DNA from: Patescibacteria group bacterium
GTDB lineage: Bacteria; Patescibacteriota; CPR2; UBA1875
Direction: 5' to 3'
NCBI GenBank assembly: GCA_041737595.1
Contig: JBGSRK010000010.1
Coordinates: 117,375-181,374 of the forward strand
DNA: 64,000 nucleotides
Part shown: piece by piece, positions 1,876-38,969 of the stretch
Numbering within the stretch: the stretch's first letter is position 1
How the letters are laid out: each line of letters starts with the position of its first letter
Position numbers and translations under genes: made by a program
Notes under the pieces: generated by a model
What the model was told of the DNA's origin: nothing
Databases searched by the model: none
Seen by the model: the letters and a program-made list of their open reading frames with translations, nothing else

Positions 1876-2967
1876 TTATTTTAAATCTTTGAATAATTTA
1901 CTTATATTAGAAAGCCATAAATTATAATCATATTTTTTTATGGCATCTTTTTGCCCATTTTTTGCAATTTCTAAAGCCTTTGAGAGATTATTTATAACAT
2001 ATTCAATTTTTTCCATTAGATCATTACTATTTACATCTTTTGTAACAAAACCAGAAACACTATCTTCTACAATCTCTGGGAGTGATCCTTTTGGTGTAAC
2101 AATAACAGGCAAACCAGTCATCATAGCCTCAACTGTTGCTAGCCCAAAGCCCTCCGAAAGAGATGGTTGGATATAAACATCCCATTTATTTAAATATTTA
2201 TAGATATCGTCTTTTTGGCCCAAAAGTTCAACTTTATTATTTAACCCAAAACTATTAATCATATTCTCAAGATTATTTCTTTCTGCACCTTCACCCATGA
2301 TTTCCAATTTAATATTTTTGTTTTCTACTTGTGATATAGATTTTATAAGTTCACCAAAATTTTTTACTGGGTGTAACCGTCCAATTGAACCAATAACCAA
2401 GCATTTGTCATCCTGAGGCAGAGCCGAAGGATCTATAGATTCTTCGTTACACTCAGAATGAAGCTCAAAAAAAACACCATTATAGATAACTGTTATTTTA
2501 TCTTCTTTGACCCCTTCTTGTATTAGGCCTTTTTTAAGATATTCTGAAACAGTAACATACTTCGAAGTAGCGAAGCGTAAAAGTCTATCAGAAACATAAT
2601 AAATTATTTTTTTAAAAATATTCCTCTGATAATCAGTTTTCCAATCACTATGGATTATAGTTATTACGGGTATTTTATATAAAAATCCCCATAGACGACC
2701 ATAAAAATTTGAAACCATCCCCATTGTTACTATGGTAGAAATATTCTTAAAGTATTTTGATCCAGGGAGAAAAGAAATGCATTTATTAAAAACTTTTGTT
2801 TCAAATTTTAATTCCTTAAGTTCATCTACAAGTGGCCAATTATTTATTGAGTATAAATGAAGATTAATTTTATTATCTTTTTTTAGACCATTAAATAAAT
2901 TTAAAATATAGGTATAAATACCACCTTTGTTTTGTGCCCCACCATATAATATGACTATGTTTTTCAT
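1876..2967 (-). CDS. Glycosyltransferase family 4
   Basis: 363 aa. C-terminal EGFGLATVEAMMTGLPVIVTPKGSLPEIV is the GT4/GT1 EX7E region. Confidence 0.8.
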   Translation of the reverse strand: MKNIVILYGGAQNKGGIYTYILNLFNGLKKDNKINLHLYSINNWPLVDELKELKFETKVFNKCISFLPGSKYFKNISTIVTMGMVSNFYGRLWGFLYKIPVITIIHSDWKTDYQRNIFKKIIYYVSDRLLRFATSKYVTVSEYLKKGLIQEGVKEDKITVIYNGVFFELHSECNEESIDPSALPQDDKCLVIGSIGRLHPVKNFGELIKSISQVENKNIKLEIMGEGAERNNLENMINSFGLNNKVELLGQKDDIYKYLNKWDVYIQPSLSEGFGLATVEAMMTGLPVIVTPKGSLPEIVEDSVSGFVTKDVNSNDLMEKIEYVINNLSKALEIAKNGQKDAIKKYDYNLWLSNISKLFKDLK

Positions 2968-2994
2968 AAATTAATTTATTTTATTATAACAATT

Positions 2995-4245
2995 TCAACT
3001 GTTTTCACCTAAGGAATTACCAAAAATTATTGCTACAGGGATTGAAATTGCTAGGAATTCAAACGTATTAGAAGCAAACATCATAAATGAAAATGCTAAC
3101 ATTGAACTATATAACAAATACTTATAATTGTTTTTAATAAAACTAACCTGGAATATAACAGAGATCAGAAACCCCAAGAAAGTCAAAAACCCCAAGATAC
3201 CAAATTGGATTAAAAATGCTATATATTGATTATCGGTTGTCAAAAGTGGAACATAACCATTCTGCATACCTAAAAAATATATCGGACTCGAATACATTTC
3301 TGCAAATTTACCACCATAGGTGCCCGCACCTGTCCCAATAAATGGATGATTTTTTAATATATATAAACCATTTTTAAAAGACCAAATTCTACCATCTATA
3401 GAAGCATTTAACCAGTATTCTGGGTTAAAGATCACTAAAATTCTGGATTTCAACCCTGTAAAAAATGCAAGGTTACTAATTTTATTTTTAAAATAATTTA
3501 TTGAGATAAATGGCAAAATGCCAAACAGACCTGCAACCCAAGCTGTTCGAGAAAGCGACACAAAAGATGCAGTGATAAAAACCAACATTATAATTATATA
3601 TTTTATATCTTTTTTATCTTTAAATATCGAAAGACAAATAAGAACCATCAAGACCATTAACATACCAAATACATTTGGACTCGTAAAAAATGCACTTGCT
3701 CGACCATAGATTGATTCAAGGGATGATGTTGTGAAAACTACATTCCCACTAAAATACTGCCAAATACCATAAATTGCCAACGGCAAACTGCTAAATAATA
3801 AGCTATTCAATAGTTTTATAGTCGATTGAGCTTGTGCCCAAATAAATGCTATAAAAAATAAAATAATTAACATTATATACATAGGAGCGTTTAGTCCGGC
3901 TTCGCCCCTAATAACTGCTAAAAAACTTGAACATATAGAAATTAACAAAAAACCAATATACCAATAATGTACTTTATATATCTTAATCTTACTTTTATCA
4001 GCAAATATAAGCGCAAAAAATAATAATATAAATGGCAATATATCTACTACATTACCCGGCAACATTATTTTAAACATTGGCTCATACCAACTTACAACAA
4101 GTGCAATTATCCCTAAGAAAAAAGATAATTTAGTATTTTTATATTGAAATAGTTCTAATATTTTAGATTCTTTTATTTTTTTATCAACGGAGTTAATAAA
4201 TAAATTATTAACAACCCATGAATTTTTAAATAAATTAATCTTCAT
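2995..4245 (-). CDS. O-antigen ligase / Wzy_C-family polytopic membrane protein (possible O-oligosaccharyltransferase or polymerase)
   Basis: 416 aa with more than 10 predicted TM helices and a periplasmic loop, the usual Wzy_C/WaaL/WsaB topology. Confidence 0.5.
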   Translation of the reverse strand: MKINLFKNSWVVNNLFINSVDKKIKESKILELFQYKNTKLSFFLGIIALVVSWYEPMFKIMLPGNVVDILPFILLFFALIFADKSKIKIYKVHYWYIGFLLISICSSFLAVIRGEAGLNAPMYIMLIILFFIAFIWAQAQSTIKLLNSLLFSSLPLAIYGIWQYFSGNVVFTTSSLESIYGRASAFFTSPNVFGMLMVLMVLICLSIFKDKKDIKYIIIMLVFITASFVSLSRTAWVAGLFGILPFISINYFKNKISNLAFFTGLKSRILVIFNPEYWLNASIDGRIWSFKNGLYILKNHPFIGTGAGTYGGKFAEMYSSPIYFLGMQNGYVPLLTTDNQYIAFLIQFGILGFLTFLGFLISVIFQVSFIKNNYKYLLYSSMLAFSFMMFASNTFEFLAISIPVAIIFGNSLGENS

Positions 4246-4633
4246 AATTAAATGATTCGATTACTCCACGTGCAAAAAAACTGCCATGAAGTTCTGCCTT
4301 TTGGCCAATTAATACTCTTTGGCCATTAAAATTATAAACTTCTTCATCTTTTTCGGCTGAGGCTTTTATTGTAACGATAATACCATCATCTGTTTTTTCA
4401 AAAGATTCTATTTCAGAAGCGTTATTAGAACCGTTAAGATAAATTTTTTCACCTTGTTTTATAGATTCTTTTATTAAATCTGCATTTTCAGTTACATGAA
4501 CTCCTAAGGTAGCATAACCAGAGAGTGCTTTTGTTGGAGAATACCAGGAAATAAATAAAAGTAAAAAAAACGAAATAACTGATATTATAATCAGATAATC
4601 AAATAAATTTAGTTTAATTCTCTTATTTTCCAT
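4235..4633 (-). CDS. Hypothetical membrane-anchored protein
   Basis: 132 aa with a single N-terminal TM segment (LIIISVISFFLLLFISWY). Translationally coupled to its neighbours. Confidence 0.4.
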   Translation of the reverse strand: MENKRIKLNLFDYLIIISVISFFLLLFISWYSPTKALSGYATLGVHVTENADLIKESIKQGEKIYLNGSNNASEIESFEKTDDGIIVTIKASAEKDEEVYNFNGQRVLIGQKAELHGSFFARGVIESFNYED

Positions 4634-5303
4634 ATTTCTCCTTAATTATATACCAAATGAACATCAAAAGCCTTGGGAATCTTTTAAACCTTTTTGGTTC
4701 TATAACCATTCTCCAAAGCCATTCTAGCCCAATCCTTTGTATTATCAATGGAGATCTTTTATACACTCCGCTTGCAACATCAAACGAACCACCTGCTGTC
4801 ATTGTGGTTATTTTAAGCTCCCTATGAACCCTTAGAGCTAGCTCTGCGGCTCTTTTCGCCCCCATCCCAATGAAACATACCTTAGCACCAGACTTTTTAA
4901 TATTTTCTATTATTTTGTTATCATCCCCAGTAAAACCATCATGATATCCGACCAAATTTAATCCTTGTGATTTGTAACTTTTTGCGGCTCTTTTAATATT
5001 ATCTTCTGTTGTCCCCCAAATATATGTAGGAGTTTTGGGATATTCTTCAATTAATTGATTTATTAAATCAATCCCGCTTATTTTTTCTATTTTTTTACCA
5101 GTTAAAAACCAATAACCCAAAGATAGTCCAACCCCATCTGCAACAAAAACATCTACATTATTTAAAATATTATCCCAATCATCTTGTTTTTGAATTAAGG
5201 CCCACTTTTCGGCATGAAGAGGAAGAATAAAAACACTTTTTTTTATATTTTTATCCCAAAAGTTATTTGATTTATATATATTTATTCTTCTTAATTTTTG
5301 CAT
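4623..5303 (-). CDS. WecB/TagA/CpsF-family glycosyltransferase (GT26, N-acetylmannosaminyltransferase-like)
   Basis: 226 aa. C-terminal GGSFDVASGVYKRSPLIIQRIGLEWLWRMVIEPKRFKRF is characteristic of Glyco_tran_WecB. Confidence 0.8.
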   Translation of the reverse strand: MQKLRRINIYKSNNFWDKNIKKSVFILPLHAEKWALIQKQDDWDNILNNVDVFVADGVGLSLGYWFLTGKKIEKISGIDLINQLIEEYPKTPTYIWGTTEDNIKRAAKSYKSQGLNLVGYHDGFTGDDNKIIENIKKSGAKVCFIGMGAKRAAELALRVHRELKITTMTAGGSFDVASGVYKRSPLIIQRIGLEWLWRMVIEPKRFKRFPRLLMFIWYIIKEKYGK

Positions 5304-5306
5304 AAG

Positions 5307-6308
5307 TTATTTTAAATATACTTTTTCGGTTTCAGCCCACATTCTTTCAATCGTAAACTTTTTTTTGTATAAATCATAGGCATAAGTATTATTTATTAAT
5401 GCAGTTTTTCCCGCTAATTTTATTATTGATAAGAAATCACCATATTTAGCTTGATATTTATCTGGGATTACTTCAGTTAATGATTCTAAATCAAAGGTTA
5501 TTACGGGTATATTTGCAGAATAAGCCTCCAGGGCCGATAAAGACATTACTTCAGTTGATGATGGGAGAACCATTACTGATATTTGTTCGAAAAATTCAGC
5601 TATATTGTCTATATTACCTAATAAAATAATATTTTTATTGTTTATTAATTTAATATCATTTAAATCTGGTCCATCGCCAGCAATGACAAGTTTGCGGTCA
5701 AGGTTATATAATTTTGCGAATTCTAGTATTCCTTTTTCTTTTGACAATCTCCCTAAATATCCTATCCCAGCACCTCTCTTTTTTACTTCTACTTTTGGAA
5801 CACCATTATAAACTACTGATATTTTTTTATTTGTGATTCCATTAATAATCATTTGATTTTTTAGATAATTTGAAATTGCAATAAAAGAATCTGTTTTTAG
5901 TTGTATTAATTTGTAAAAAGGTCTGACTTTAAGTGGTAACTGGTCAAGCCGATGAAAGGTTCTTATAATCTTAATTTTTGCCCCAAATATTTTTGCAAAA
6001 ACAGATAAAAAATGTTCTCTTAAAAAATGAGTATGGACAATATCAATATTATTTTCTGTAAAATATTTTTTTAATATAAATACAGCCGTCAAGTCGTACC
6101 AACTTTTCATCTTTATTATTTTATATTTAAAAGGTTGATTATCCCCAAAGTTTTTTGGTGAAGTAGCCATATTTTCTAAACCTGGGCCTTCTTTACCAAA
6201 AACAAAAGTAATATTATTCCCACTTTTACGAGCTTCATAACTTAAATAGGTAATATATTTCTCTGCTCCCCCTGTACCTGGATAATCAATAATATGCAAT
6301 ATATTCAT
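5307..6308 (-). CDS. Glycosyltransferase family 4
   Basis: 333 aa. N-terminal MNILHIIDYPGTGGAEKYI fits a GT4 N-terminal domain. Confidence 0.7.
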   Translation of the reverse strand: MNILHIIDYPGTGGAEKYITYLSYEARKSGNNITFVFGKEGPGLENMATSPKNFGDNQPFKYKIIKMKSWYDLTAVFILKKYFTENNIDIVHTHFLREHFLSVFAKIFGAKIKIIRTFHRLDQLPLKVRPFYKLIQLKTDSFIAISNYLKNQMIINGITNKKISVVYNGVPKVEVKKRGAGIGYLGRLSKEKGILEFAKLYNLDRKLVIAGDGPDLNDIKLINNKNIILLGNIDNIAEFFEQISVMVLPSSTEVMSLSALEAYSANIPVITFDLESLTEVIPDKYQAKYGDFLSIIKLAGKTALINNTYAYDLYKKKFTIERMWAETEKVYLK

Positions 6309-7235
6309 TTATACCTCAAGTATCCCAAGTTTAAATAATATTTTTGCTAAATAATATGCGGTATTATTATTAAAATTATAAACAGTAATAAATAATTTTA
6401 TTTTAATTGGAATAGAGTAATGAGATATTTTTTTTATAGCTAAATCGCTTGATATATAATCCTTATTTAAAATCCCAGAAATTAAAATTCTATTCAAATT
6501 TTTTTTATGACCTAATTTTATATAATCATCTTTATCAGTTAATTCTAACTTGTCGAATATTTTTTCATTTTCAAGATATAATTTTGTTTTATTTGATGAG
6601 AGTGATTGGGGTAAATTTCTCCATGCACATAAAATATCAGGTAAAACTAAAACGCCATATTTTTTTGTAATTCTTAACCATAAATCAAAATCATCAACCC
6701 CGACTAGGTTTTCATCTAAAAATCCAACTTCATTGAAGATTTTTCTAGGAACGATTACAGAACAAGTTGTAATATAATTTGTTAATAAGATTTTTTTATA
6801 TGATTCTGGTGATGGTATATATTCTAATTTTCTTAAAAAGGTATCAATAACATTATTTTTTTTATCAATAACATTGGCTGAAGTGGCGATTATCCCAATT
6901 TTACTTTTGTTATTTGATAAATTATATGACTTTATTTGTTTTTCAATCTTTTCAGGATACCAAACATCATCTTGATCACAAAAAGCGATAAAATCACCTG
7001 TTGATTTTTTTATTCCAAAATTTCTAGGCCTTGCTGGTGATCCACTATTTTTTATTTTGTAATATTTGATTCTAGAGTCATTAACAGATTTAATAATATT
7101 TTCTGAATCATCAGTAGAGCCATCATTAATGATAATCAATTCTATATTTTTATAGGTTTGATTTAAAATAGAATTAATTGACTCTTTGATGGTTTGTGAA
7201 CCATTATAAACAGGGGTAATAACACTAACCTTCAT
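6309..7235 (-). CDS. Glycosyltransferase family 2
   Basis: 308 aa with VITPVYNGSQTIKESINSILNQTYKNIELIIINDGSTDDS, the GT-A/GT2 signature. Confidence 0.8.
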   Translation of the reverse strand: MKVSVITPVYNGSQTIKESINSILNQTYKNIELIIINDGSTDDSENIIKSVNDSRIKYYKIKNSGSPARPRNFGIKKSTGDFIAFCDQDDVWYPEKIEKQIKSYNLSNNKSKIGIIATSANVIDKKNNVIDTFLRKLEYIPSPESYKKILLTNYITTCSVIVPRKIFNEVGFLDENLVGVDDFDLWLRITKKYGVLVLPDILCAWRNLPQSLSSNKTKLYLENEKIFDKLELTDKDDYIKLGHKKNLNRILISGILNKDYISSDLAIKKISHYSIPIKIKLFITVYNFNNNTAYYLAKILFKLGILEV

Positions 7236-8169
7236 TTTTCCCTCCTAATAATTTTGAAGAAATCTTTTTAAAATCACCTTCTAATAAAAGCTTAAAAAAT
7301 ACATTAATCTTTTGAAGTGGAATATAAACAAATTTAGCATATTTAATCCAACTAGGAACTGTTTTGTACTCATTTTTACTATATGCCATATGTTTTAAAT
7401 CCATAAATTTGACATAAAACCAACCAAAACCATCTTCTTTATAAAATTTATGTTCATCTGGCTCAATATTTTTCCACCTAGACATATATAAATCAGAATT
7501 ACTCTTATTTAATTGAAATCTTCCTTCTGAAATACTCTCATAATGTGTAACTACCGATTTTGGAGTATAAATTATATCATAACCGGCTTTTTTAATTTTT
7601 AAGCATAAATCAATATCCTCTAAGCCATTTACATATAATTCATCAAAACCATCTACTTCAGAAAATATTTTTTTAGGTATTGCTATACAAGCTGCTGTAA
7701 CTGCTGTGTAATATCTTTTTTTATTAGCGCTAATTAAATTAGATTTTTCATAAGAATAAATATGTCTTGGTATTTTATCCTCTGAAATAACAACTCCAGC
7801 ATGTTGAATCTTACCATTAGGGAAAAGGAGTTTTACTCCGACTGCTCCAATATTTATTTCTTCTAAAAAAATATTTTCAATTTCTTTAAGCCAACCAGAA
7901 TGAACCTCTGTATCATTATTTAAAAAAATTAAAATTTCGCCTCTGGCTTTTTTGGCACCTTGATTACACGCTTTTGAAAAATTTTTATTTACACTATTGG
8001 TAATTAAAATTATATCTTTTTGTTTTTTTAAATAATCCACAGAGCCATCCGTGGAACCATTATCAATAACAATAATTTCTAAACCAAAACCTTCTTTTCT
8101 TAAAGATTGTAAGCATTTTTTTGTATATTCTTTATTATTAAAAGAGGGTATAATTGTGCTAAAATTCAC
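7225..8169 (-). CDS. Glycosyltransferase family 2
   Basis: 314 aa with IIPSFNNKEYTKKCLQSL...IIVIDNGSTDGS. Confidence 0.8.
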   Translation of the reverse strand: MNFSTIIPSFNNKEYTKKCLQSLRKEGFGLEIIVIDNGSTDGSVDYLKKQKDIILITNSVNKNFSKACNQGAKKARGEILIFLNNDTEVHSGWLKEIENIFLEEINIGAVGVKLLFPNGKIQHAGVVISEDKIPRHIYSYEKSNLISANKKRYYTAVTAACIAIPKKIFSEVDGFDELYVNGLEDIDLCLKIKKAGYDIIYTPKSVVTHYESISEGRFQLNKSNSDLYMSRWKNIEPDEHKFYKEDGFGWFYVKFMDLKHMAYSKNEYKTVPSWIKYAKFVYIPLQKINVFFKLLLEGDFKKISSKLLGGKNEG

Positions 8170-8195
8170 ATAGAGATATTAACACAGAAAGAGAT

Positions 8196-9578
8196 ATGAA
8201 AAAAGATATAATAATTTTATCTGTAGGTCCAGTGCCCACTCAAGATAATAAGATCGTTGAGGGGGGAGGGCTAAGAGCCTGGGGGTTAGCTAACGGTTTA
8301 AGCCAGAATGATATTAAAGTCACTGTGGCAGTACCAGACTCTTACAAAATAGAAGACCAGAACATTAACAACATTAATATTGTTAGTTGGGATTTTAACA
8401 ATGTAATCGATTTATGCAACAAATACAATACCGTATGTGTTTTGTACTCTAGGGCAGATCTGATGCAATTTTTAACAGACAATCTTGACCCTAAAAAAGT
8501 AGTGATCATAGATTTGTATGTACCAATATACATAGAGTCGTTAGCTCGAAAAGTTCCTAGAGATATTAATGGGGTTAATAACCATTTGCAAAATATTAAA
8601 TATTGGAATTCAGCATTCACGAGAGGGGATTATTTTATTTGTGCAAACAAGAATCAACATCATTTGTATACTGGATTATTAAGCGCCTTTGGCAGGATAA
8701 GCCCAGTTAGTAAAGTAGAAAATATATTAAAAGAAGTCCCTTTTGGAATCTATAGCACTCCAATAGGAAACAAGGCTAAACTGCCCGCTAAATATAAAAA
8801 ACAAAATGGCGATTTTGTTATTCTTTGGTTTGGGGGCATATATCCCTGGTTTGACATAGAGCCACTACTAAAAACTATTAAAGATCTTTCTGATAAGAAT
8901 AGCCAGTTAAAGTTATATGTAGTCGGTGGCAAAAACCCGTTTGTGAAGGATGAACAATTTATTAAGAAATATAAGGATACAGTTAACCTAGCTAAGAAGA
9001 TGGGTCTTTTGGATAAAAACATATTTTTTAAGGATTGGATTTCTTACGAAGATAGAGAGTCCTGGTATAACACGGCCGATATAATAATTAATTTACATAA
9101 TCCTGGCAGTGAGTCAATGTATGCATGGAGAACAAGGGTAGTCGACTTCATTTGGGCTGGAAGACCAATAATATCTAGCGGAGGAGACGAACTAAGCTCT
9201 ATGATGGAGAAAAAAGATGCTGCTTATATCCTCAAAAGTAACACAGAAGAAGAGATTTCAAAAGCTATATTAAAGGTTAAAGATGACAAGAAATATAGAG
9301 AGAAAATAATAAATAACCTGAAAGAAATGCAAAAAAGCTTGTACTGGGAAAATACAACAAAAGAGTTGTCTAGATTTATAAATAATCCTCAAATTGCAAA
9401 GGATCGTGACTTCTTTTTAAAGAACCATATAAATTTTAGTCCCCTAGAAAAAACTCATCACAATTCCAAAGAAAATAGGAAATATAACCAGCTTTCCAGG
9501 GCTGTTTTTATCTATAAATCTGAGGGCTTAAAGTCTTTATTGAAAAGAACCAGAAATTATCTAGGAAAGTTTTTTTAA
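8196..9578 (+). CDS. Glycosyltransferase (GT4-like, two-domain)
   Basis: 460 aa. C-terminal DFIWAGRPIISSGGDELSSMMEKKDAAYIL resembles the GT1/GT4 C-domain. Divergently oriented to the flanking genes. Confidence 0.5.
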   Translation: MKKDIIILSVGPVPTQDNKIVEGGGLRAWGLANGLSQNDIKVTVAVPDSYKIEDQNINNINIVSWDFNNVIDLCNKYNTVCVLYSRADLMQFLTDNLDPKKVVIIDLYVPIYIESLARKVPRDINGVNNHLQNIKYWNSAFTRGDYFICANKNQHHLYTGLLSAFGRISPVSKVENILKEVPFGIYSTPIGNKAKLPAKYKKQNGDFVILWFGGIYPWFDIEPLLKTIKDLSDKNSQLKLYVVGGKNPFVKDEQFIKKYKDTVNLAKKMGLLDKNIFFKDWISYEDRESWYNTADIIINLHNPGSESMYAWRTRVVDFIWAGRPIISSGGDELSSMMEKKDAAYILKSNTEEEISKAILKVKDDKKYREKIINNLKEMQKSLYWENTTKELSRFINNPQIAKDRDFFLKNHINFSPLEKTHHNSKENRKYNQLSRAVFIYKSEGLKSLLKRTRNYLGKFF

Positions 9579-10940
9579 ATAAAGATTCTCAATTTGGCTT
9601 GAGTATTCTTTTATAGATTTTGGAGGTTTTATTCTTCTCTGAAATTTGTTAATATTCTCTGGATCATTTGAGAAATATGACATAGCCCTCTCTAAATCCC
9701 CCGTCTTATCAGGGTTAAAGATTAAGCCATCTACATTATTTTTGACCCTTTCGGGCATTCCACCTCTATTAGAAATAATTACAGGTTTACCAAATGTATG
9801 AGCTTCATCTACAACTAACCCATAAATCTCATTCCATAACGATGGGACTACTACTACGTCTATCTTGTTCATTATTTTTGCTATATCAGTCGGTTTATAT
9901 ATACCACCATATTCAATTGAACTGATTTTACTTACTTCACTTAATGCCTCTCTAATTTTATTGTCTTTTTCGTCATATGAGCCATATATCTTTAAAGCGA
10001 CATCTTTGTTTTTGTCTGATAAACTCTTAAATTCATTTAATAACAGGTAAAAACCCTTATCTTTTGTTATGTGAGAGATAAAACCAAAGTTAACTTTTTC
10101 TCCTTTATGAATTTTTATTGCATTATCATTTAACTTAATCCCATGTTCTATATATTGTATCTTTTTAAAATTTATACCAAAATTAGTAGCTTCATTTTTT
10201 AAGTAATTTGAAGGAGATATTATTACATCGGCCATATTATAATATTCTTTAAATAAATTATTCCTTACTGATATCTCTTTTGGATCAATGTGCTTTTCAA
10301 GATCTCCGGCAATACTTTTTTTCTTTAATAGGTCAAAATTCCTTAAAAACCTAATAAATGCATCAGAAATTGGCTTAATTATTGGTAATCTTCTAAATAC
10401 TACATATGTTTTATATGCTAATGATTTTAATCTATACTTAAAACTTTTATCTCTAGGTTGCATAAGTCTCATACAATCTTCACAATCGTGTAGTATATTT
10501 TTGTTTTTAAAATTACAGTTTTTATCATGTTTGTAACCACGTATATACGGACATTTAAACCACATATCATGTAATGTTAAGAATAGAGGGATATTTTTTC
10601 CCTTTACTATAGAAATAAAATCTAGGGAAAAGTTGATAAGATGTTGAATATGTATAATATCTGGCTTAACTTCATCGATTACTTTTTTAAATTCATTATT
10701 AAAATAATCATTTTTATAAGTTTCTTGTGGGATTAATTTTTCGCGAGAATCAAAAACCTTAATAATATTTATTCCATCCTCTTTGTATGTTATTCTTTGC
10801 CTTTCTTCTTTGCTCTTAGCTTTTGTAAAAATATATAATTCATGTTTTTTTGCTAATTCAAAAGCTAAATCATGGGTATGATTTTCAACTCCAGCCCTAT
10901 GTTCTGGCCAATAATCATGTATAACAAATAATATTTTCAT
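9561..10940 (-). CDS. Glycosyltransferase family 4 with Cys-rich insertion
   Basis: 459 aa. MKILFVIHDYWPEHRAGVENHTHDLAFELAKKHELYIF is a GT4 N-terminal domain, and there is an HDCEDC Cys cluster. Confidence 0.7.
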   Translation of the reverse strand: MKILFVIHDYWPEHRAGVENHTHDLAFELAKKHELYIFTKAKSKEERQRITYKEDGINIIKVFDSREKLIPQETYKNDYFNNEFKKVIDEVKPDIIHIQHLINFSLDFISIVKGKNIPLFLTLHDMWFKCPYIRGYKHDKNCNFKNKNILHDCEDCMRLMQPRDKSFKYRLKSLAYKTYVVFRRLPIIKPISDAFIRFLRNFDLLKKKSIAGDLEKHIDPKEISVRNNLFKEYYNMADVIISPSNYLKNEATNFGINFKKIQYIEHGIKLNDNAIKIHKGEKVNFGFISHITKDKGFYLLLNEFKSLSDKNKDVALKIYGSYDEKDNKIREALSEVSKISSIEYGGIYKPTDIAKIMNKIDVVVVPSLWNEIYGLVVDEAHTFGKPVIISNRGGMPERVKNNVDGLIFNPDKTGDLERAMSYFSNDPENINKFQRRIKPPKSIKEYSSQIENLYLKKLS

Positions 10941-10941
10941 T

Positions 10942-12114
10942 TTAAAATATTTTTTTTAATTTTTCCGTTAATAACTCAAAAAAACATTTTTTTTTCTTCA
11001 TTTGAATTATTAGATCTCTTGAAGATTGTAATTCTTTATGAGCGACTTCCAATGATTTTTCAAGATTTTTTATATGTTTATCTTCTTCTATTAATTTAGA
11101 AAAATTATTTTCATATTTTTTAGTAATATTCAATAAATATTGGAATTCACATAATAACTCTCCGGATGATATTTTTGATTTTTTAAATCCATCTTTTATC
11201 ACTGATCCATATAAATTAATTAATTTATTAATATTGTTATCTAAACCATGATCTTGATGAATTGATTTATAAATAAGTTTTGGATTGTTATTATTATATT
11301 TTTTTATTTCTTTAATTAAATCATTTTCTGTATATTTAAGCCTATATTTACGACCAGAAAAATTATTATATCTAATTTTATTGAAATTATTAATTGTAAC
11401 CAAACCATCAGCTCCAAAAATATCATATACTATTACATTTCTATTACATGCGAGTGATTCTAATACCCCCCTACCCAAAGTTATTATTATATCTGAATTA
11501 TTAATTTGCTCAACTATATTTTCTTTAACATTATTAGGTAGACCAACATGTTGGTATTTAATATTAATTTTTTTACATGCTGCTTTAATAACTTTTTCAA
11601 CATTTAAATCTAGATGATTACTTAAAACTAAAACTTTTTTTGGAATTTTATTCCCAATTGAGGTTGGTTTAAATCTTTTAAGATCCACTGAATTATAGAT
11701 TTTTATTATATTACTTTTTGGAATTTTATATTTATTTTTATAATGATTTTCTATTTCATCACTTGTAACAATATATTTAGAAATACCAAGATTAACTGAA
11801 GGAGGTTGTTCTATTTCAGGGATAAAGCCGTGTGACATAAATACCATTGGAGTATTTGGAAAATAAGATCGTGCCATAATTGCTGTAATATTATGTTGAG
11901 AATGAATTATATCTATTTTTACTTTTTTAAAATTATCTAAATTATCTGTAATTTCAATATTATATTTTTTTAAACTATAACTTAAATCACCTATAATTGG
12001 TGAATATATAAAAACATTATTCCCCTTTTTACTTAGATTAATTGCTAAATCTCTTGTAAAAATTTCACTTCCAGAAAGAGTGGAAAATTTTTGCACTGTA
12101 ATTAATATATTCAT
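10942..12114 (-). CDS. Glycosyltransferase-like protein with C-terminal coiled coil
   Basis: 390 aa. The N-terminal half is GT4-like and the C-terminal 80 aa are heptad/coiled-coil-like. Confidence 0.4.
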   Translation of the reverse strand: MNILITVQKFSTLSGSEIFTRDLAINLSKKGNNVFIYSPIIGDLSYSLKKYNIEITDNLDNFKKVKIDIIHSQHNITAIMARSYFPNTPMVFMSHGFIPEIEQPPSVNLGISKYIVTSDEIENHYKNKYKIPKSNIIKIYNSVDLKRFKPTSIGNKIPKKVLVLSNHLDLNVEKVIKAACKKINIKYQHVGLPNNVKENIVEQINNSDIIITLGRGVLESLACNRNVIVYDIFGADGLVTINNFNKIRYNNFSGRKYRLKYTENDLIKEIKKYNNNNPKLIYKSIHQDHGLDNNINKLINLYGSVIKDGFKKSKISSGELLCEFQYLLNITKKYENNFSKLIEEDKHIKNLEKSLEVAHKELQSSRDLIIQMKKKKCFFELLTEKLKKIF

Positions 12115-14090
12115 TTCTTCGGATGTATTTTAATTGAATTATCTATTGCTGATTCCCAAGGATATAATGTTCTATTAAAATCTGATTTAAGATGGACTGC
12201 CTTACCTTTTCTATTCAACCATTTAGTAGAATACATGGGGAAATTATTGGCATAATAATCACAAGTATCTTCCCATTGTTTAATAGATATTGATTTGCCA
12301 TAATGTTGTGAGAAAAATTTTGTAATAATTTTACCATCAACAAAAGGTTCCCTTGCATCAATACCGGAAAATTTTACGCTTGGGTTATTCCGCCAAATCA
12401 TTAGAATATCTCTTCTTTCTGGGCCAAAATATTGTCTAAAATTTAATAGTTTTCCATTTCTATATGGGGATTTATCGTTGGTTGTTATATAAGCATCAAA
12501 TAGACTAATACGAATACCATTAATATCTAAAGACTCTTTACTTAATAAATATTTTTTTATATCACCAATAAAACGCTCATCTGCATCAAAATAAAAGAAC
12601 CATTTTGGGTTGTATTTTCTACCTGCTTCTAATAATAATTGACGGCTTTCTGTTTCTTCTACTGCTCTATCCTTTTTCCATATTTTATTATTTATCACTT
12701 CTATAACTTTTGGATGAGAATAAACTTTATCTAGGGTATCATCCGTACTAGCATCATTTAATACAATAATTTTATCTACAAATTTACTAACATGATCAAT
12801 TGTATCCTGTATTATTAAACTTTCATTCCTAACTCTAGTTAGCCCAATTATTTCAATATTATCATGCCAAAAACTACCTGACGAAATTATAGCTGGAGTT
12901 TTTGTAATGTTCTGTATATAAAATTTATGAGATTTAAACTTTTCAAAATATACTTCATCACTTTTCAAATCTCTAATACTAATTGATATTTGATAAATTC
13001 CAGTTTTAATGCTCGGTATCGAAATTTTAAAATAAAATTTTTTAGTGTCAAATAATTCATCAATCATTCTTATAGAATCAGCAATAATAAGATTATTCTT
13101 TTCGTCGTAAAGTCCAACTCCTAATAACAATCTTGATCGGATATTAACATCTGATTCCCCATAATCAACCTTTCCGCTTGCAATAATATCATCTCCAACA
13201 AGAAATTCCTGAGTTTTTTCATTTTTGCTATTTTTAAATTCTAAATTATTAACGCTTACGGTTGATTTTTTATCATTTTTATTTTTTTCAGGTAAAATAT
13301 TTAAAATGTTATATTTATGCACAGCTTCCTTAGGACTTCCAATAAATGAAATTTTACCTTTATCAAGCAATAAAACACGATCACAAAATTCTTCAATATT
13401 ACCCATTGAGTGACTAACAAAAACAACTGTTTTACCATTTTGTTTTAATTCTCTAAATTTATCAAAACATTTTTGTTGAAAATTATAATCACCAACAGCT
13501 AAAACCTCATCTATTAATACTATATCTGCATGAGCCTGAACAGCAACAGAAAAAGCTAATCTAACTTGCATACCTGAAGAAAAGTTCTTTAATTTATGAT
13601 CAACAAATTCTTCTAACTCAGCAAATTCAATTATCTCATTAAATTTTGTATCAATTTCTTTTCTAGTAAGGCCAAGTATTGTACCATTTAAATAAACATT
13701 ATCATGTGCCGAAAGTTCGGGATTAAAACCAACACCTAGTTCTAAAAATGGAGATAATCGACCCTTAATGCTTATCTTACCGCTATTAGGTTGGTATATT
13801 TTTGCTAACATCTTTAACATTGTAGATTTACCAGAACCATTTCTCCCAATAATTCCAAAGAACTCCCCCTCATTAATATTAAAAGAAATATCTTCAGCAA
13901 CCTTTAATTCTGTATACTTATTGCGTTTAAATAAGTTAAAAATAAATGATTTTAATGTTTTTCTTTGTTCATGTGGAATCTTAAAAATTTTAGATACATG
14001 GGAAACACTAATCGAAAGATTTTTATTATTAACATCTTTTTTAACTATGTCCTCTTTTTTTTGTTTATAACTAAAAATATTAAAAAACAT
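12111..14090 (-). CDS. Polysaccharide ABC exporter ATP-binding protein (Wzt/TagH-like) fused to a C-terminal GT2-like glycosyltransferase domain
   Basis: 659 aa. Walker A GRNGSGKST, the ABC signature LSGGMQVRLAFS and Walker B DIVLIDEVLAVGD lie in the first 270 aa. The C-terminal roughly 250 aa have TRVRNESLIIQDTIDHV...IIVLNDASTDDT...FYFDADE, a GT-A DXD-type pattern. Confidence 0.75.
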   Translation of the reverse strand: MFFNIFSYKQKKEDIVKKDVNNKNLSISVSHVSKIFKIPHEQRKTLKSFIFNLFKRNKYTELKVAEDISFNINEGEFFGIIGRNGSGKSTMLKMLAKIYQPNSGKISIKGRLSPFLELGVGFNPELSAHDNVYLNGTILGLTRKEIDTKFNEIIEFAELEEFVDHKLKNFSSGMQVRLAFSVAVQAHADIVLIDEVLAVGDYNFQQKCFDKFRELKQNGKTVVFVSHSMGNIEEFCDRVLLLDKGKISFIGSPKEAVHKYNILNILPEKNKNDKKSTVSVNNLEFKNSKNEKTQEFLVGDDIIASGKVDYGESDVNIRSRLLLGVGLYDEKNNLIIADSIRMIDELFDTKKFYFKISIPSIKTGIYQISISIRDLKSDEVYFEKFKSHKFYIQNITKTPAIISSGSFWHDNIEIIGLTRVRNESLIIQDTIDHVSKFVDKIIVLNDASTDDTLDKVYSHPKVIEVINNKIWKKDRAVEETESRQLLLEAGRKYNPKWFFYFDADERFIGDIKKYLLSKESLDINGIRISLFDAYITTNDKSPYRNGKLLNFRQYFGPERRDILMIWRNNPSVKFSGIDAREPFVDGKIITKFFSQHYGKSISIKQWEDTCDYYANNFPMYSTKWLNRKGKAVHLKSDFNRTLYPWESAIDNSIKIHPKK

Positions 14091-14932
14091 TAAACATCCT
14101 CTGCAAAACTATTAGACATTTTATTAAAAATAATATAACCAATAATAAATGTTATTAAAACTATAATCATAGGCAACCAGCTAAAGCACCAAAAATCGTT
14201 TGTAGTTAAAGTAGCGCCCTCCCCAATTAATATTATTCTCATATCAGAAATTACCTGTGCTAAAGGTGAAAGCATTTGAAATTTAGCATATTTAATTGGC
14301 ACTAAACTAAGTGGATAAATAATTGGAGTAGCATAAAATAATATTTGATTTAATACTTCCCAAATATGGCCCAAGTCTCTAAATTTAACAAAAATAGAAG
14401 AAAGTGCCAAACCAACACCTAAAATAAATAAATATAACTCGAAAATATATAAAAGAATAAATAATACACCAAAGTTGAAATTAACACCGTTAATAATTGC
14501 AAAAACAAAAACAGCAAACATATTTAAAACAAAAGTAAGTAATGCTGTAAAAGTTGATGAAATAACTAAAATTATTCTAGGGAAATATACTTTTCTAATT
14601 AAATCACCTTTTGAAGTAATGGACTGCATAGCTGCAGATGTTGCTTCGGCCCAAAACCCAAATGTTACAACACCTAATAATAAATATATTGGGTAATGGG
14701 GGATTGAATCCCCTAATTTAAAAACACTAGTAAATACAACATATAAAACCATGAAATATGCCAAAGGTTTGCCTAGTGACCAAAAATAACCAAGGATTGA
14801 TCTCTCATACTTTAGTTTAAAGTCTGTAAAAGAAAGTTCTTTAATTAGTTCCCAATAATTATGGTTAGTATTAAATTTATTATTATTTTTCATTAACTTC
14901 AATATACTATCAAATTTGATTATAAAAATCAA
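14090..14932 (-). CDS. ABC-2 type polysaccharide export permease (Wzm/TagG-like)
   Basis: 280 aa with 6 TM helices, an ABC-2 membrane profile, and a start overlapping the ATPase stop. Confidence 0.75.
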   Translation of the reverse strand: MIFIIKFDSILKLMKNNNKFNTNHNYWELIKELSFTDFKLKYERSILGYFWSLGKPLAYFMVLYVVFTSVFKLGDSIPHYPIYLLLGVVTFGFWAEATSAAMQSITSKGDLIRKVYFPRIILVISSTFTALLTFVLNMFAVFVFAIINGVNFNFGVLFILLYIFELYLFILGVGLALSSIFVKFRDLGHIWEVLNQILFYATPIIYPLSLVPIKYAKFQMLSPLAQVISDMRIILIGEGATLTTNDFWCFSWLPMIIVLITFIIGYIIFNKMSNSFAEDV

Positions 14933-17092
14933 TTAATAGATTATAGGTCCAAGAAAAAGAGAATTAAGTGCATTATTAGAAATTGGAACTATATTACCCC
15001 ATTTATATAATGGATCATAAACACTATGTTCATTAAAAGTTTGTGCACTAAAAACTGGCATTTTAGAACCTGACCCAATAACATAAACTGAACCATTATT
15101 TGAACCAAGTCTAGTTAGACGATTTGGAGAAGGATAATTTAAAAGAAAGGTATTATTTTTAGTATAAAAAATATTTATCCATGCAAACCCCCAATTATAA
15201 AAAGTATCTACATCAACGATTGGCCTTTTACCATCATCATCCATAAAATAAACCGAACCGCCATACGAATAGGTTACCAAACGTGGAAAAGTAATAAGTG
15301 CTCCTTTTGTCATTAAATTATAGGTATTTGCTGAAATTTTTTTAATATCACCCCATCCTAAACCCCAATTATCTTTAAATATATTAAAAGTGTCTGAGTC
15401 ATTAATTGGTCTTAATTTACCTTCTTGGGCCAAATAAACACTCCCAGTGTACAAAGCTAATTGAGTTAGTGGTTCTCCAGTTGGATATGTGTTAATAGTT
15501 GATAATGGTGCCCAATATACATTATCCCAATTAAAACCCCAATTATTGAATATACTACTATTTATAATTGGTCTCTTGTAGCCATTTTCAATATAAAAAA
15601 CACCACCAAGATTATATGATCCAATAAGATAGTCTTCAAAATTAACATTAAAAGTAACTGAATTTGCGTCGTGGCTATTTTGGGTAATTCTTATTTTATT
15701 CGCAGAATCATAAAACTCTCCTCCATCAGTAAGGGCAATATCTGACCAATTATTTGCTGGAGTCATATCTAAAAGATATGTGTCAAAAGGAACAGGCGGA
15801 TTATAATAAGGAGTATTAAAATAATCGGTATAAATTCTCCCAATAAGTCCCCTCGTAACCCCGGTGGGAAGATTAATGTCAAACCCTGTCGGTTGGCGAT
15901 ATTCAAACCAATAATAATCACTGGTGTTTGGTTTGGCGATTTTTAAAGCATGGTATCCCATTGTCGAGCTTTCCAAATCATCAATCGTATATGTCCCCGA
16001 CGTAGTAATGGTTCTCACCTTACCGTCCGGGACCCAACCTGCTTTATTTTTCCAGGCTGCATTCATATGAAAAACATTTGTCCAGCTACCGTTGCCACCC
16101 ATAACATCATATGCATCCTCATATCCTGTTGCCCCAGGCGTGCAAGAGGCATAAGCAACGATTGTTGATGCTCCGCAGTCTAAATTGCTTGAATGACCAG
16201 CACCGAAATTGTGCCCTAATTCATGAGAATAAACAAACCGGTCATTGTTTCCATTGTACCAAGTTTCGTCCCCGGAGACTTCTCCTAAACCTGCCCAACT
16301 ACACGACAAATTGTATGGGAAAATATACATAAATTTGGCATAGCTTGCTAAATTATATCCAGCATCTGTTGCGGCAGTGCGAGCAGCAACAGTCCATTGA
16401 TCTAATAGATTCCCAACTCCATAATATGAACATCCGACACCACTACTAAAAGGAATCGTGAGCCAACTTGACGTAACATTAGTAACGGTGCCATTTATTG
16501 ATACTTCTCCATTAGAAGCTTGTTTATAATAACTATTTGCCGAATCGGCATTTGAAAAAATCTGACCAGTAATTAGTGCCTGAGTAAAAGGCGCTGCTGA
16601 TGGGTCATTTTCCCAATTAAAAGTAATTGCAAGAACATCTTGCTGGCCGGTAATTTCTCTAACTGGTGGAATTAGAGTTTTGACTGTTTCAGCAACAAAT
16701 AAACCATCTATTTGATAACCTTCAACATTAACAGTTGAACCTGATTCTGCCATTTTCGTATCTTTTAAACCATAAAGATCAAATTTATTATTATCAGTTT
16801 CTAAAATAGTTATTTCAGTACTAGTATTCTCAGATGAAGCAATTAATCTTTTCACTTCTCCTTTTATACTTATCTTGGGAATATCTTTAAAATCATCTTT
16901 TATGAGCGCTTTTGAATCTGTTTGTATTTTTTTAATTAAACTTTTTTTATCAGAAATATGGGTGTACGTTTTTTGTTTATCTGGATTATTTATTTTAAAT
17001 TGTAATTGATTATTAACATCAATAGAATTTGGACTACCCCAAAACAAGACTAAAGCAAAAACAAACAATAGAAGATGTAATATTTTCTTCAT
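14933..17092 (-). CDS. Secreted metzincin-family zinc metalloprotease with C-terminal ~40-aa repeat domain
   Basis: 719 aa with a signal peptide (MKKILHLLLFVFALVLFWG) and VYSHELGHNFGAGHS, which is HEXXHXXGXXH. The C-terminal roughly 210 aa consist of repeated G-x-Y-x-I-x-x-G-x-[KR]-R-P-I...F...GF-W units shared with the next gene. Confidence 0.6.
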   Translation of the reverse strand: MKKILHLLLFVFALVLFWGSPNSIDVNNQLQFKINNPDKQKTYTHISDKKSLIKKIQTDSKALIKDDFKDIPKISIKGEVKRLIASSENTSTEITILETDNNKFDLYGLKDTKMAESGSTVNVEGYQIDGLFVAETVKTLIPPVREITGQQDVLAITFNWENDPSAAPFTQALITGQIFSNADSANSYYKQASNGEVSINGTVTNVTSSWLTIPFSSGVGCSYYGVGNLLDQWTVAARTAATDAGYNLASYAKFMYIFPYNLSCSWAGLGEVSGDETWYNGNNDRFVYSHELGHNFGAGHSSNLDCGASTIVAYASCTPGATGYEDAYDVMGGNGSWTNVFHMNAAWKNKAGWVPDGKVRTITTSGTYTIDDLESSTMGYHALKIAKPNTSDYYWFEYRQPTGFDINLPTGVTRGLIGRIYTDYFNTPYYNPPVPFDTYLLDMTPANNWSDIALTDGGEFYDSANKIRITQNSHDANSVTFNVNFEDYLIGSYNLGGVFYIENGYKRPIINSSIFNNWGFNWDNVYWAPLSTINTYPTGEPLTQLALYTGSVYLAQEGKLRPINDSDTFNIFKDNWGLGWGDIKKISANTYNLMTKGALITFPRLVTYSYGGSVYFMDDDGKRPIVDVDTFYNWGFAWINIFYTKNNTFLLNYPSPNRLTRLGSNNGSVYVIGSGSKMPVFSAQTFNEHSVYDPLYKWGNIVPISNNALNSLFLGPIIY
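15334..15509. repeat. ~177-bp near-identical segment shared between the two paralogous secreted-protein genes (copy 1)
   Basis: Direct comparison: ...tttaatatcaccccatcctaaaccccaattatctttaaatatattaaaagtgtctgagtcattaattggtcttaatttaccttcttgggcc... There are 2 mismatches against 17543..17718, and the flanks are about 80% identical. Confidence 0.8.
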
Positions 17093-19252: not shown

Positions 19253-20143
19253 TTAATTTAAATATAAATTTAATGATTCTTCCCAATCCGCAATATAAAT
19301 TCCACCCTCTTTTGCTTTTGTAAGATCTAGCGCTGAATAAGCAGGACGATTGGCAATTTTACTCGTATCTTTCCCGGCATAATATTCTTCAGTGGTAACA
19401 TATTTAACGTTTGAATTTTTGCCGGCAATTTCAAATATTTTCTTTGCAAAATCAGCCCAGGAAATAATTGGTCCATCACCAGTTACATGATAAATACCAG
19501 GGGGGATAGGAGTGGAAGAAGGAGATTGCCGCGTCGCAAGCTCCTCGCAATGACGGAGGGTCGAGAGAGAAATATCATACATTGCGCGAGCAAGATCGAG
19601 TGCATAGGTTGGTCGACCAACTTGATCTGAAACTACAGTTAATTCTGGATATTTTTCAGAAAGATCAATCATTGTTTTTACAAAGTTTTTACCATCACCA
19701 TAAACCCACGACGTTCGAAGAACATAACCACCTACTGCAAGTGTATGTTTTTCACCGGCTAGTTTTGTGGCACCATAAACACTTATTGGGTTAGGGGTTG
19801 CGTCTGGCTTGATTGGGCTAGTTGCGGTTCCATCAAAAACATAATCAGTTGAAATATAAATCATTTTAACGCCATGTTTTTGGCATGAAATTGCCAGATT
19901 TTCTGTCCCCCTATCATTAACAAGTGTACAAATATCTTTATTTTCTTCACATCCATCTACATTTGTATATGCAGCACAATGGAATAACCATTCTGGTTTA
20001 AATTTAATAAATGTTTTTTCTATTGCCTCTAAATCTGTAATATCCATATCATCAGAATCAGTAAAAAGAGTTACTTCATCTTTTAATACTTCTGAGAGTG
20101 CATGACCAAGCTGACCATGACCGCCAGTAACTAATACTTTCAT
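19253..20143 (-). CDS. rfbD: dTDP-4-dehydrorhamnose reductase
   Basis: 296 aa with MKVLVTGGHGQLGHAL, an RmlD-type Rossmann start. Confidence 0.8.
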   Translation of the reverse strand: MKVLVTGGHGQLGHALSEVLKDEVTLFTDSDDMDITDLEAIEKTFIKFKPEWLFHCAAYTNVDGCEENKDICTLVNDRGTENLAISCQKHGVKMIYISTDYVFDGTATSPIKPDATPNPISVYGATKLAGEKHTLAVGGYVLRTSWVYGDGKNFVKTMIDLSEKYPELTVVSDQVGRPTYALDLARAMYDISLSTLRHCEELATRQSPSSTPIPPGIYHVTGDGPIISWADFAKKIFEIAGKNSNVKYVTTEEYYAGKDTSKIANRPAYSALDLTKAKEGGIYIADWEESLNLYLN

Positions 20144-20193
20144 ATATTCTCCTTTCTTCGTTATTCAAATATAGACTGTAATGAAGAAATATT

Positions 20194-20769
20194 TTAGGTT
20201 AATTCTTTTAAAAGAGAATGGGATTTGTCCTTATCGGATATAATAGCCTCCGAAAGAGGAATGGGCCAATCTATGGCAAGGTCTGGGTCTGCAAGGTTTA
20301 TTAGAGTGTATTTTGCTTCTGGCGACCAGTGGGCATCTACTAAATAAGTATATAAAACATCTGGCGTTAGGGTTTGAAATGAGTTGGCACAGCCTTTGGG
20401 CACAAACAGTGCCTTTTGGGGATTCATCTCAAAAGTCTCTACCATCCCATAAGTATCTCCCTCTCGCAAATCAACTATCGCCGTAAATGCTCTTCCGGTT
20501 TGGATACTAATAAACTTGCTCCATGGTTCTGCATGGATACCCCTAGTGACACCTCTTTCTTTATTCGCAGATACGCTTAATTGTACTGGGACAAAATCTT
20601 CTGGAAGTCCGGCTATTCTCAGTTTTTCTAATTGGAAACTTTCCTTGAACCAACCTCTTTCATCACCGTTTAAAACCAAATCAAAAAATAATAGTCCAGG
20701 TATGCGGGTTTTATGGGACCTAATTTCTTTGTTTTCATACAGCGACTTATCGTAGTTGTCGTTTTTCAT
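20194..20769 (-). CDS. rfbC: dTDP-4-dehydrorhamnose 3,5-epimerase
   Basis: 191 aa with cupin-fold RmlC motifs (RGIHAEPW...FVPKGCANSFQTL). Confidence 0.85.
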   Translation of the reverse strand: MKNDNYDKSLYENKEIRSHKTRIPGLLFFDLVLNGDERGWFKESFQLEKLRIAGLPEDFVPVQLSVSANKERGVTRGIHAEPWSKFISIQTGRAFTAIVDLREGDTYGMVETFEMNPQKALFVPKGCANSFQTLTPDVLYTYLVDAHWSPEAKYTLINLADPDLAIDWPIPLSEAIISDKDKSHSLLKELT

Positions 20770-20774
20770 AATAA

Positions 20775-22498
<1,724 letters not shown>

Positions 22499-38600: not shown

Positions 38601-38969
38601 ATGAAACCAACAATTTTAGTAGTCGATGATGACACAAATCTTACCGGGTTATATGAAGCTGCTCTTTCGGCTAGAGGTTACCGAGTAGTAGTTTGTAATA
38701 ATGGGGAAACCGCCCTTGATTTAGCTGAAAAAGAAAATCCAGATTTAATTCTCTTAGATATTATGATGCCCGCTATTCATGGTTTACATGTACTTGATAT
38801 ATTAAAAGCAACTCCTCAAACCGAGGATTCAAAAGTAATTATGTTAACTGCACTTGGAGACGAAGCAACAAAAGAAAAAGCACTTGCAACGGGGGCCATT
38901 GATTATATTGTAAAATCAGACAGCAGTATGGCAGATATTTTAAATAGAATTCAAAAGGCGTTAGATTAA
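38601..38969 (+). CDS. Single-domain response-regulator receiver protein (CheY-like)
   Basis: 122 aa with MKPTILVVDDDTNL...LILLDIMMP...IMLTALGD...K. Confidence 0.75.
   Translation: MKPTILVVDDDTNLTGLYEAALSARGYRVVVCNNGETALDLAEKENPDLILLDIMMPAIHGLHVLDILKATPQTEDSKVIMLTALGDEATKEKALATGAIDYIVKSDSSMADILNRIQKALD

Follow-up and report, generated by a model that had tools for sequence, protein, structure and literature searches.

In bacterial glycan pathways that depend on an ATP-binding cassette (ABC) transporter, export is known to be coupled to chain termination through the carbohydrate-binding module (CBM) of the ATPase subunit, Wzt, while the way in which terminator, polymerase and transporter are arranged is less clear. 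In the characterized systems, terminators reside in coiled-coil proteins and the CBM of Wzt reads the cap (PMC11231755). In polymerase-terminator systems such as WbdD, WbbB, the terminators of Klebsiella pneumoniae O4/O7 and WsaE, a terminating activity is encoded beside wzt, glycosyltransferase (GT) modules have a coiled-coil protein associated with them, and the CBM-bearing Wzt exports finished chains only (PMC11231755, PMC2943079). In the S-layer glycosylation (slg) cluster of Anoxybacillus (Geobacillus) tepidamans the gene order is wzm, wzt (encoding ABC_tran plus Wzt_C) and wsbG, the start of wsbG overlapping the stop of wzt by 13 nucleotides (nt), and WsbG (UniProt A2BD20) is a free-standing GT of 283 amino acids (aa). 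Here we describe a gene from a 64,000-nt stretch of DNA (the window; contig JBGSRK010000010.1, positions 117,375 to 181,374, assembly GCA_041737595.1) of a Patescibacteria group bacterium of the CPR2 lineage, in which a Wzt-type nucleotide-binding domain (NBD), a Wzt_C-type CBM and a GT-A domain of the WsbG family almost certainly make up one polypeptide of 659 aa.

The locus resembles Wzm/Wzt systems whose Wzt carries a C-terminal carbohydrate-binding domain (Aquifex aeolicus, 7K2T/8DKU; the Wzt proteins of E. coli O9a and Raoultella O12) in its adjacent ABC-2 permease gene, its complete NBD motifs and the beta-sandwich that follows the NBD. It differs from them in the additional 250-aa GT-A enzyme behind the CBM and in a CBM too divergent for Pfam Wzt_C; moreover, since the host belongs to the Candidate Phyla Radiation (CPR) and is without an outer membrane, the product is not a lipopolysaccharide O antigen. 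With the WsbG cluster it shares a GT placed after wzm-wzt, a homolog of the 390-aa protein encoded next, rml genes, several GTs and a Wzy_C-type transferase, the difference being that in the window wzt and the GT are one polypeptide, and as a whole the window cluster matches the logic of Bacillaceae slg clusters as reviewed (PMC2943079). Like the polymerase-terminator systems it has a coiled-coil protein directly downstream, here GT4-like and with relatives fused to polymerase GTs. The fusion protein differs from ruler-bearing terminators in that its AlphaFold2 (AF2) model contains no coiled coil, this being found in the product of the next gene, and when the GT was searched against the PDB, none of the known terminators (WbdD, WbbB GT99, GT137), those of the WbbB type included, matched in sequence or fold. 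In the literature that we searched, no Wzt fused to a GT or terminator and no wzt-wsbG linkage is described; the sequences are already in public databases under generic names.

Integrity of the fusion gene

The fusion gene is an uninterrupted open reading frame (ORF) and lies in a region of ~27% G+C that is rich in stop codons. A Pfam scan of the 659-aa protein places ABC_tran at residues 66-196 (E 6.8e-22) and Glyco_tranf_2_4 (PF13704) at residues 421-507, the latter scoring above the gathering score (37.3 versus 27.5 bits), and residues 26-276 align to TagH and Wzt/RfbE export ATPases of NCBIfam (E 1e-55 to 1e-50). The equivalog cut-offs of NF010065, NF010066 and NF050108 are not reached (189, 170 and 175 bits versus 538, 320 and 400), so that by these scores the ATPase is a relative of the TagH and galactan Wzt equivalog families and not a member of them. 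The NBD keeps its Walker A (GRNGSGKST, residues 82-90, DNA 13821-13847), signature (FSSGM, 170-174), Walker B (IVLIDE, 190-195) and H-loop (SH, 226-227) motifs intact, and its fold matches the NBDs of Wzt and TagH in Foldseek. No transmembrane segment was found in the fusion protein. The full-length AF2 model (predicted local distance difference test (pLDDT) 86, predicted template modelling (pTM) score 0.69) resolves an NBD at residues 22-265, a beta domain at 279-393 and a GT-A domain at 414-655. A preliminary description of this stretch, made from the sequence alone, had joined a Wzt/TagH-type ATPase to a GT in one ORF, and had seen in the C-terminal ~250 aa a GT-A fold with a DXD motif; with ABC_tran N-terminal and PF13704 C-terminal in a single 659-aa frame, and with the GT model described below, both proposals are upheld.

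We considered whether the single ORF might be a frameshift or assembly error that joins wzt to a downstream GT gene, given that in most genomes the two genes are separate with overlapping ends and that indels are possible in metagenome-assembled genomes (MAGs). The identical protein, however, is present in a public collection (P0001) and on a 190-kb NCBI contig, the same 659-aa ORF being recovered in an independent read-level assembly, and seven full-length fusion homologs of 49-57% identity come from other samples and sources. The fusion junction is free of gaps among the fusions in an alignment with two-domain Wzt proteins from which rows containing only the GT were left out (alignment A3), and an independent fusion is found in an isolate genome, that of the cultured Pseudomonas gingeri. 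The independent assembly and the homologs from other samples rule out an artefact for practical purposes, and we give it only a minute residual probability.

A folded module between the ATPase and the glycosyltransferase

Residues 279-393 form, in the AF2 model, an all-beta domain of eight strands, mostly at a pLDDT of ~90. The best PDB matches in Foldseek (7K2T, 8DKU and 8DL0) are to A. aeolicus Wzt, on the full length of which, NBD and carbohydrate-binding domain, residues ~20-400 superpose over 384-395 aligned columns at 32-33% identity. Residues 281-405 correspond, in alignment A3, to the Wzt_C domains of 50 two-domain Wzt proteins, and in P0002, which among the fusion homologs is closest to the window protein, Pfam detects Wzt_C significantly at the equivalent position (E 4e-10). 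A mixed alignment (A2) of fusions, two-domain Wzt proteins and GT-only sequences was discarded, MAFFT having set the CBMs beneath the GT domain. The middle region of the window protein gives no significant match to Pfam Wzt_C, also when searched alone, and because of this its assignment rests on structure, alignment and homologs; judged by its sequence, this CBM is too divergent for Pfam Wzt_C detection. According to the model, the fusion protein keeps its CBM and the GT is added behind it, replacing nothing. On this point we depart from the preliminary description, which had taken the region for a linker and had set the catalytic GT in contrast to the usual CBM of Wzt: the supposed linker, residues ~279-393, is a folded Wzt_C-type beta-sandwich, as seen in the AF2 model, its superposition on 7K2T/8DKU and the Wzt_C match of P0002.

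The CBMs of the CPR proteins, that of the window included, are very divergent, median identity for the window clade being 17% within the CPR and 15% to non-CPR proteins (a pooled estimate of 20% mixed CPR and non-CPR groups and was later split into these separate medians). By comparison, the non-CPR CBMs of WsbG-linked Wzt proteins have a set of motifs in common (NT.RDD, G.Y, YD, GIP..EG and H.W) and a median cross-phylum identity of 30%. This sharing of motifs is compatible with a shared ligand, the 30% being a value that lacks a baseline from Wzt CBMs that bind known different caps.

The glycosyltransferase and its relatives

Modelled alone with 48 homologs, the GT domain gives a pLDDT of 94.7 and a pTM of 0.91 and adopts a GT-A (single Rossmann-like) fold. 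Its motifs are RVRNE at residues 419-423 (RNE 421-423), NDASTDD at 445-451 (DASTD 446-450), FDADE at 501-505 and QHYGK at 595-599. The DxD motif, DAD at residues 502-504 (DNA 12579-12587), is invariant in 48/48 aligned homologs. The preliminary description had named HHpred or structure prediction as the way to tell such an enzyme from a non-catalytic carbohydrate-binding domain or a fold devoid of the DxD; the GT-A model and the invariant DxD rule out both of these. The sole named member of the family is WsbG, to which the window GT is 54-56% identical over the whole domain; identity to 47 family members is 49-64%, and free-standing homologs of 250-290 aa number in the hundreds, with identities of 50-64%. 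Median identity is 52% for the GT and 53% for the NBD, that is, the GT is conserved as strongly as the ATPase.

This conservation bears on whether the domain is an enzyme at all. A catalytically dead GT-like domain might serve as a nucleotide-sugar sensor, as a second glycan-binding module or as a scaffold. Roughly 40 residues, among them NE, DxSxD, DADER and QHYGK, are invariant over the 48 homologs and are all kept in the window, as are the invariant residues specific to the family (NE, DxSxD, DADER, QHYGK and W..TC.YY). Invariance across phyla of the DxD, of the DxSxD nucleotide-binding motif and of some 40 further residues is typical of active enzymes; we regard a dead domain as highly improbable and, on the strength of these residues, consider the GT very likely to be catalytically active.

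The acceptor is a separate matter. In Foldseek the GT model matches SunS/ThuS first and then classic GT2 enzymes; the sequence profile agrees, and it also matches ThuS and GmaR. That the best profile and fold matches are peptide or protein S- and O-glycosyltransferases would suit a GT that glycosylates a protein or peptide, either the transporter itself or a partner, instead of a lipid-linked glycan, in which case the connection to Wzt would be regulatory; copies of the GT that lie outside glycan clusters in Bradyrhizobium would suit it as well. The likeness to SunS/ThuS and GmaR, however, lies mainly in the nucleotide-binding half (178 of ~250 residues, ~24% identity, Foldseek template-modelling score ~0.5), and the acceptor-side region, ~70 C-terminal residues, is specific to the WsbG-like family and unrelated to theirs. 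The tetratricopeptide repeats and other peptide-binding accessory domains of SunS-type enzymes are absent from the fusion, and the genomic context is completely different, the linkage being to glycan exporters and GTs. A protein or peptide target is therefore improbable in our view, if a little less so than a dead domain.

Split and fused forms across phyla

A pattern scan of one genome per species returned 226 relatives of the GT, of which the loci of the best 80 were examined. In 34 of the locus records, a Wzt NBD is encoded upstream of the GT in the same orientation. In 27 records (~22 distinct loci) wzt is followed on the same strand by a separate GT gene, the stop and start overlapping by 4-155 nt in 24 of them and the genes lying 53-1940 nt apart in the other three. 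These split loci are from Bacillota, Cyanobacteria, Beta- and Gammaproteobacteria, Campylobacterota, Actinobacteria, Saccharibacteria and Moranbacteria and cover six or more phyla. In-frame fusions account for 7 records, or 4 distinct loci. Besides the window clade, they include a Moraniibacteriota MAG and P. gingeri, both of which have a split form as their sister (in Collimonas for P. gingeri); in the cultured isolate P. gingeri D8001 the fusion is an uninterrupted ORF of 704 aa. In quick neighbor-joining trees of the NBD and of the GT, which are broadly congruent, the fusions occupy three separate positions, each beside split relatives. These data show that the fusion arose in frame from adjacent wzt and wsbG-like genes with overlapping stop and start, that it is present in at least three separate lineages and that wzt and the GT family move together as one unit. 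The fusion is rare, since among the best 150 matches in 1.84 billion proteins it collapses to a single representative at 50% identity clustering. The question raised in the preliminary description, whether the fusion is conserved in relatives or split elsewhere, thus has a two-part answer: it is kept in close relatives (49-57% identity) and split in most other genomes.

Several individual loci deserve mention. The wzt-GT pair of a Synechococcus sp. UW140 MAG (L028) nests within a betaproteobacterial clade (L014-L016) in both the NBD and the GT tree, which suggests horizontal transfer of the wzt-GT module between phyla. In P. gingeri D8001 (L060, 2261-6762) two Wzt-type ATPases flank one wzm; one of them, of 510 aa, has an NBD and a domain that matches Wzt_C strongly, and the other is the 704-aa NBD-CBM-GT protein, in which the Wzt_C match is weak. 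The 868-aa protein P0007 (L086, 1110-3716), encoded next to wzm, has an S-adenosylmethionine (SAM)-dependent methyltransferase at ~706-848 behind the GT, giving the order NBD-CBM-GT-methyltransferase. Other metagenomic Wzt-like ATPases (P0298, P0340, P0369, P0265, P0378 and P0348) carry further fusions, in which the partners are TylF-, Methyltransf_11- and FkbM-type methyltransferases, a TupA-like ATP-grasp enzyme, two GT2 modules, and Wzt_C plus DUF4915. To judge from these proteins, enzymes that modify glycans appear to have been attached to the C-terminus of Wzt repeatedly. Orphan loci of the GT (L030, L032-L033, L035-L036, L038-L039, L041-L046, L048-L049, L051-L059, L061-L065 and L067-L083) are mostly from Bradyrhizobium and other Alphaproteobacteria.

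A coiled-coil partner protein

The gene downstream of the fusion encodes a 390-aa partner, and the genes for Wzm, fusion and partner overlap at both junctions in the window. Homologs of the partner directly follow the GT in 24/29 wzt-linked loci versus 3/50 unlinked loci. They are either free-standing proteins of 385-475 aa or the N-terminal module of proteins of 1030-1270 aa that continue into GT2/GT1 modules; 22/24 members have the GT4-like N-terminal domain, and the coiled-coil segment is conserved. The wzm/wzt-linked GT and its coiled-coil partner are shown by this gene order and homology to be a conserved three-gene module. Members of the module are also found fused in pairs: Wzt to the GT in the window, a WsbG-type GT to the partner family in P0356 (hhalign probability 100%, E 7e-71) and likewise in the Hylemonella locus L040, and the GT4-like protein to polymerase GTs in L003 and L060. 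The architecture of the partner recalls, by analogy, the terminator and molecular-ruler proteins of ABC-dependent pathways.

A possible role in capping and export

We think it probable that the GT is functionally associated with the exporter and a termination complex. We also lean, with somewhat less confidence, toward the view that the product of the gene is the ATPase subunit of an exporter of the Wzm/Wzt type, that this exporter transports a lipid-linked, rhamnose-type surface glycan and that the subunit is part of a termination/export assembly. That the GT specifically adds a cap or terminates the chain fits the context and is plausible, but we infer this more tentatively than either of the preceding points. 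In such an assembly Wzt, the GT and the coiled-coil partner would together form a membrane-associated complex that finishes the chain and passes it to the transporter. The GT-A domain would be cytoplasmic and would use a nucleotide sugar and, at its DxD, a divalent cation, and it would add a sugar to an undecaprenyl-diphosphate-linked glycan, most likely at or near the non-reducing end, where the adjacent CBM could then read it. Tethering would put modification, recognition and ATP-driven export within a few nanometres of one another.

Several observations count in favor of capping. The GT is tightly linked to CBM-type Wzt proteins and is fused behind the CBM; P0007 has its extra SAM methyltransferase, and other Wzt NBDs are joined to O-methyltransferases, ATP-grasp and GT2 modules. 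The S-layer glycan of A. tepidamans is capped with MurNAc and GlcNAc (PMC2943079), and these two sugar caps may be set against two conserved GTs with no assigned role in its cluster. Family scans of the genes of the window glycan cluster found no methyltransferase or kinase, which would leave a sugar as the only kind of cap for the CBM to read. The polymerase-terminator model, with its terminators in coiled-coil proteins (PMC11231755), also speaks for capping.

Other observations weigh against a capping and export role. The searchable published literature holds no member of the WsbG family with an activity, and the nearest solved relatives of the GT (SunS, ThuS and GmaR) act on peptides or proteins. 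A shared cap would not predict a highly conserved GT together with the strong divergence seen among CBMs of the window clade. Some 50 alphaproteobacterial copies of the GT (44-49% identity) lack any wzt within 6 kb, and because of these orphans the family cannot be strictly tied to exporters; around the Bradyrhizobium orphan that we inspected (L039) the neighbors are P450, histidine kinase, aromatic hydroxylase and transposase genes, a context unrelated to glycans that we set aside as uninformative about function. Finally, if WbbB and WbdD are taken as a guide, the GT4-like partner with its coiled coil would be an equally good or better candidate for the terminator, and the more obvious one.

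Some of the same facts may be accommodated if the GT is an ordinary enzyme of the pathway, acting as a reducing-end primer or adaptor transferase or as a repeat-unit polymerase module, and was fused merely through gene adjacency. The fusion would then provide stoichiometry or co-localization and no special link from last sugar to export. Conservation across phyla would fit if either the acceptor (for instance a shared primer or adaptor) or the donor (for instance dTDP-rhamnose) is itself conserved; in the window clade the CBM does not share the conservation of the GT, genes whose stop and start overlap by 4-155 nt are readily fused by accident, and in mycobacteria the adaptor-stage enzyme GlfT1 is encoded between wzt and wzm homologs. 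As for the donor, rml genes are present in the window and within 6 kb in 8-11 of 29 linked loci, but they are absent within that distance from most, and we rejected their co-occurrence as a decisive clue to a rhamnosyl donor. Initiating enzymes differ among the clusters that contain the family, the window and L003 having WecG/TagA and A. tepidamans having no initiating enzyme in the 20-kb stretch that was read. Accidental fusion is harder to square with recurrence in three lineages and with retention in a clade of 49-57% identity, and the methyltransferase and the coiled-coil partner, each found in other fusions, speak for the termination end of the pathway. An ordinary pathway GT is on balance an unlikely, though not negligible, explanation.

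The capping role also has a broader version, namely that CBM-bearing Wzt, WsbG-family GT-A and GT4-like coiled-coil protein are a portable "cap-and-export" cassette, passed among six phyla or more, that installs a common sugar cap from universal precursors, for example GlcNAc/MurNAc. We consider this doubtful; if true, the pairwise fusions would be natural evidence of terminator machinery docking on the cytoplasmic face of the exporter. More generally, with NBD, CBM and GT naturally joined in a single chain, there would be direct genetic evidence of a modifying enzyme working at the transporter, and the fusions of the GT to the coiled-coil protein and to polymerase modules would give evidence of the same kind. 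Our results point to the WsbG-family GT as an undescribed enzyme partner of glycan exporters. As an uncharacterized family that is conserved like the ATPase and linked to wzt in many phyla, it is a concrete target for biochemistry, and the fused form would be convenient for cryo-electron microscopy of an exporter-enzyme complex. The locus also adds to a sparse picture of surface glycan assembly in the CPR.

The glycan cluster and its surroundings

The cluster runs from rmlABCD through two large proteins, wzm, the fusion gene and the coiled-coil partner to seven more GTs, WecG/TagA among them, and a Wzy_C/ligase-like protein (Table 1). RecA assigns the organism to the Patescibacteria.

Table 1. 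Coordinates of the fusion gene, its domains, the glycan cluster and other features of the window, with partner homologs from other loci
Feature	Position	Strand	Basis or remark
Fusion ORF, 659 aa: Wzt NBD, Wzt_C-type CBM and WsbG-family GT-A	12111..14090	-	Pfam, NCBIfam, AF2 model
ABC nucleotide-binding domain, residues ~22-265	13296..14027	-	Pfam, NCBIfam, Foldseek, motifs
Wzt_C-type carbohydrate-binding beta-sandwich, residues ~279-393	12912..13256	-	AF2 model, Foldseek, alignment, homolog P0002
GT-A glycosyltransferase domain, WsbG family, residues ~414-655	12126..12851	-	Pfam, GT-domain model, homolog alignment
wzm, ABC-2 permease	14090..14932	-	PF01061, E 1e-12; stop overlaps fusion start (TAATG)
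Partner protein, 390 aa: GT4-like N-terminal domain and C-terminal coiled coil	10942..12114	-	Start overlaps fusion stop (ATGA)
Partner homologs	L001 10858-12162; L003 4803-8615; L060 6764-10246		
rmlA, rmlB, rmlC, rmlD (dTDP-L-rhamnose synthesis)	19253..22498	-	Orientation as exporter genes
GT4	9561-10940	-	
GT1-type	8196-9578	+	
GT2, two genes	7225-8169 and 6309-7235	-	
GT4	5307-6308	-	
WecG/TagA	4623-5303	-	
132-aa ORF	Between WecG/TagA and Wzy_C-like genes, within 1876..10940	-	
Wzy_C/O-antigen-ligase-like protein	2995-4245	-	
GT4	1876-2967	-	
Two large proteins between rmlD and wzm	14933-17092 and 17142-19205	-	719 aa and 687 aa
Split Alg14-like and Alg13-like pair	965-1441 and 1438-1875	+	Overlapping; cluster edge
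Four-gene run ending in NiFe hydrogenase large subunit	38969-42770	+	
dnaA	45889-47238	+	
VirB4-like ATPase region	50662-53536	-	
PilB-type type IV pilus ATPase	30507-32120	+	

In one of the two large proteins (719 aa) a metallopeptidase domain of the M11/reprolysin-like kind is combined with a C-terminal region of repetitive sequence, and the other (687 aa) has no Pfam or NCBIfam match; both may be secreted or surface proteins and are possible glycosylation targets. At the edge of the cluster, the overlapping pair encodes a split UDP-GlcNAc transferase, Alg14-like plus Alg13-like (GT28 C-terminal).

Away from the cluster, the hydrogenase subunit is closest to the alpha subunit of group 3b sulfhydrogenase (E 2e-75, below the equivalog cut-off) and is notable in a small CPR genome. 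The VirB4-like conjugal-transfer ATPase (CD1110 family, above cut-off) adjoins a 368-aa protein without a family match. Given the presence of dnaA in the window, the replication origin is probably nearby.

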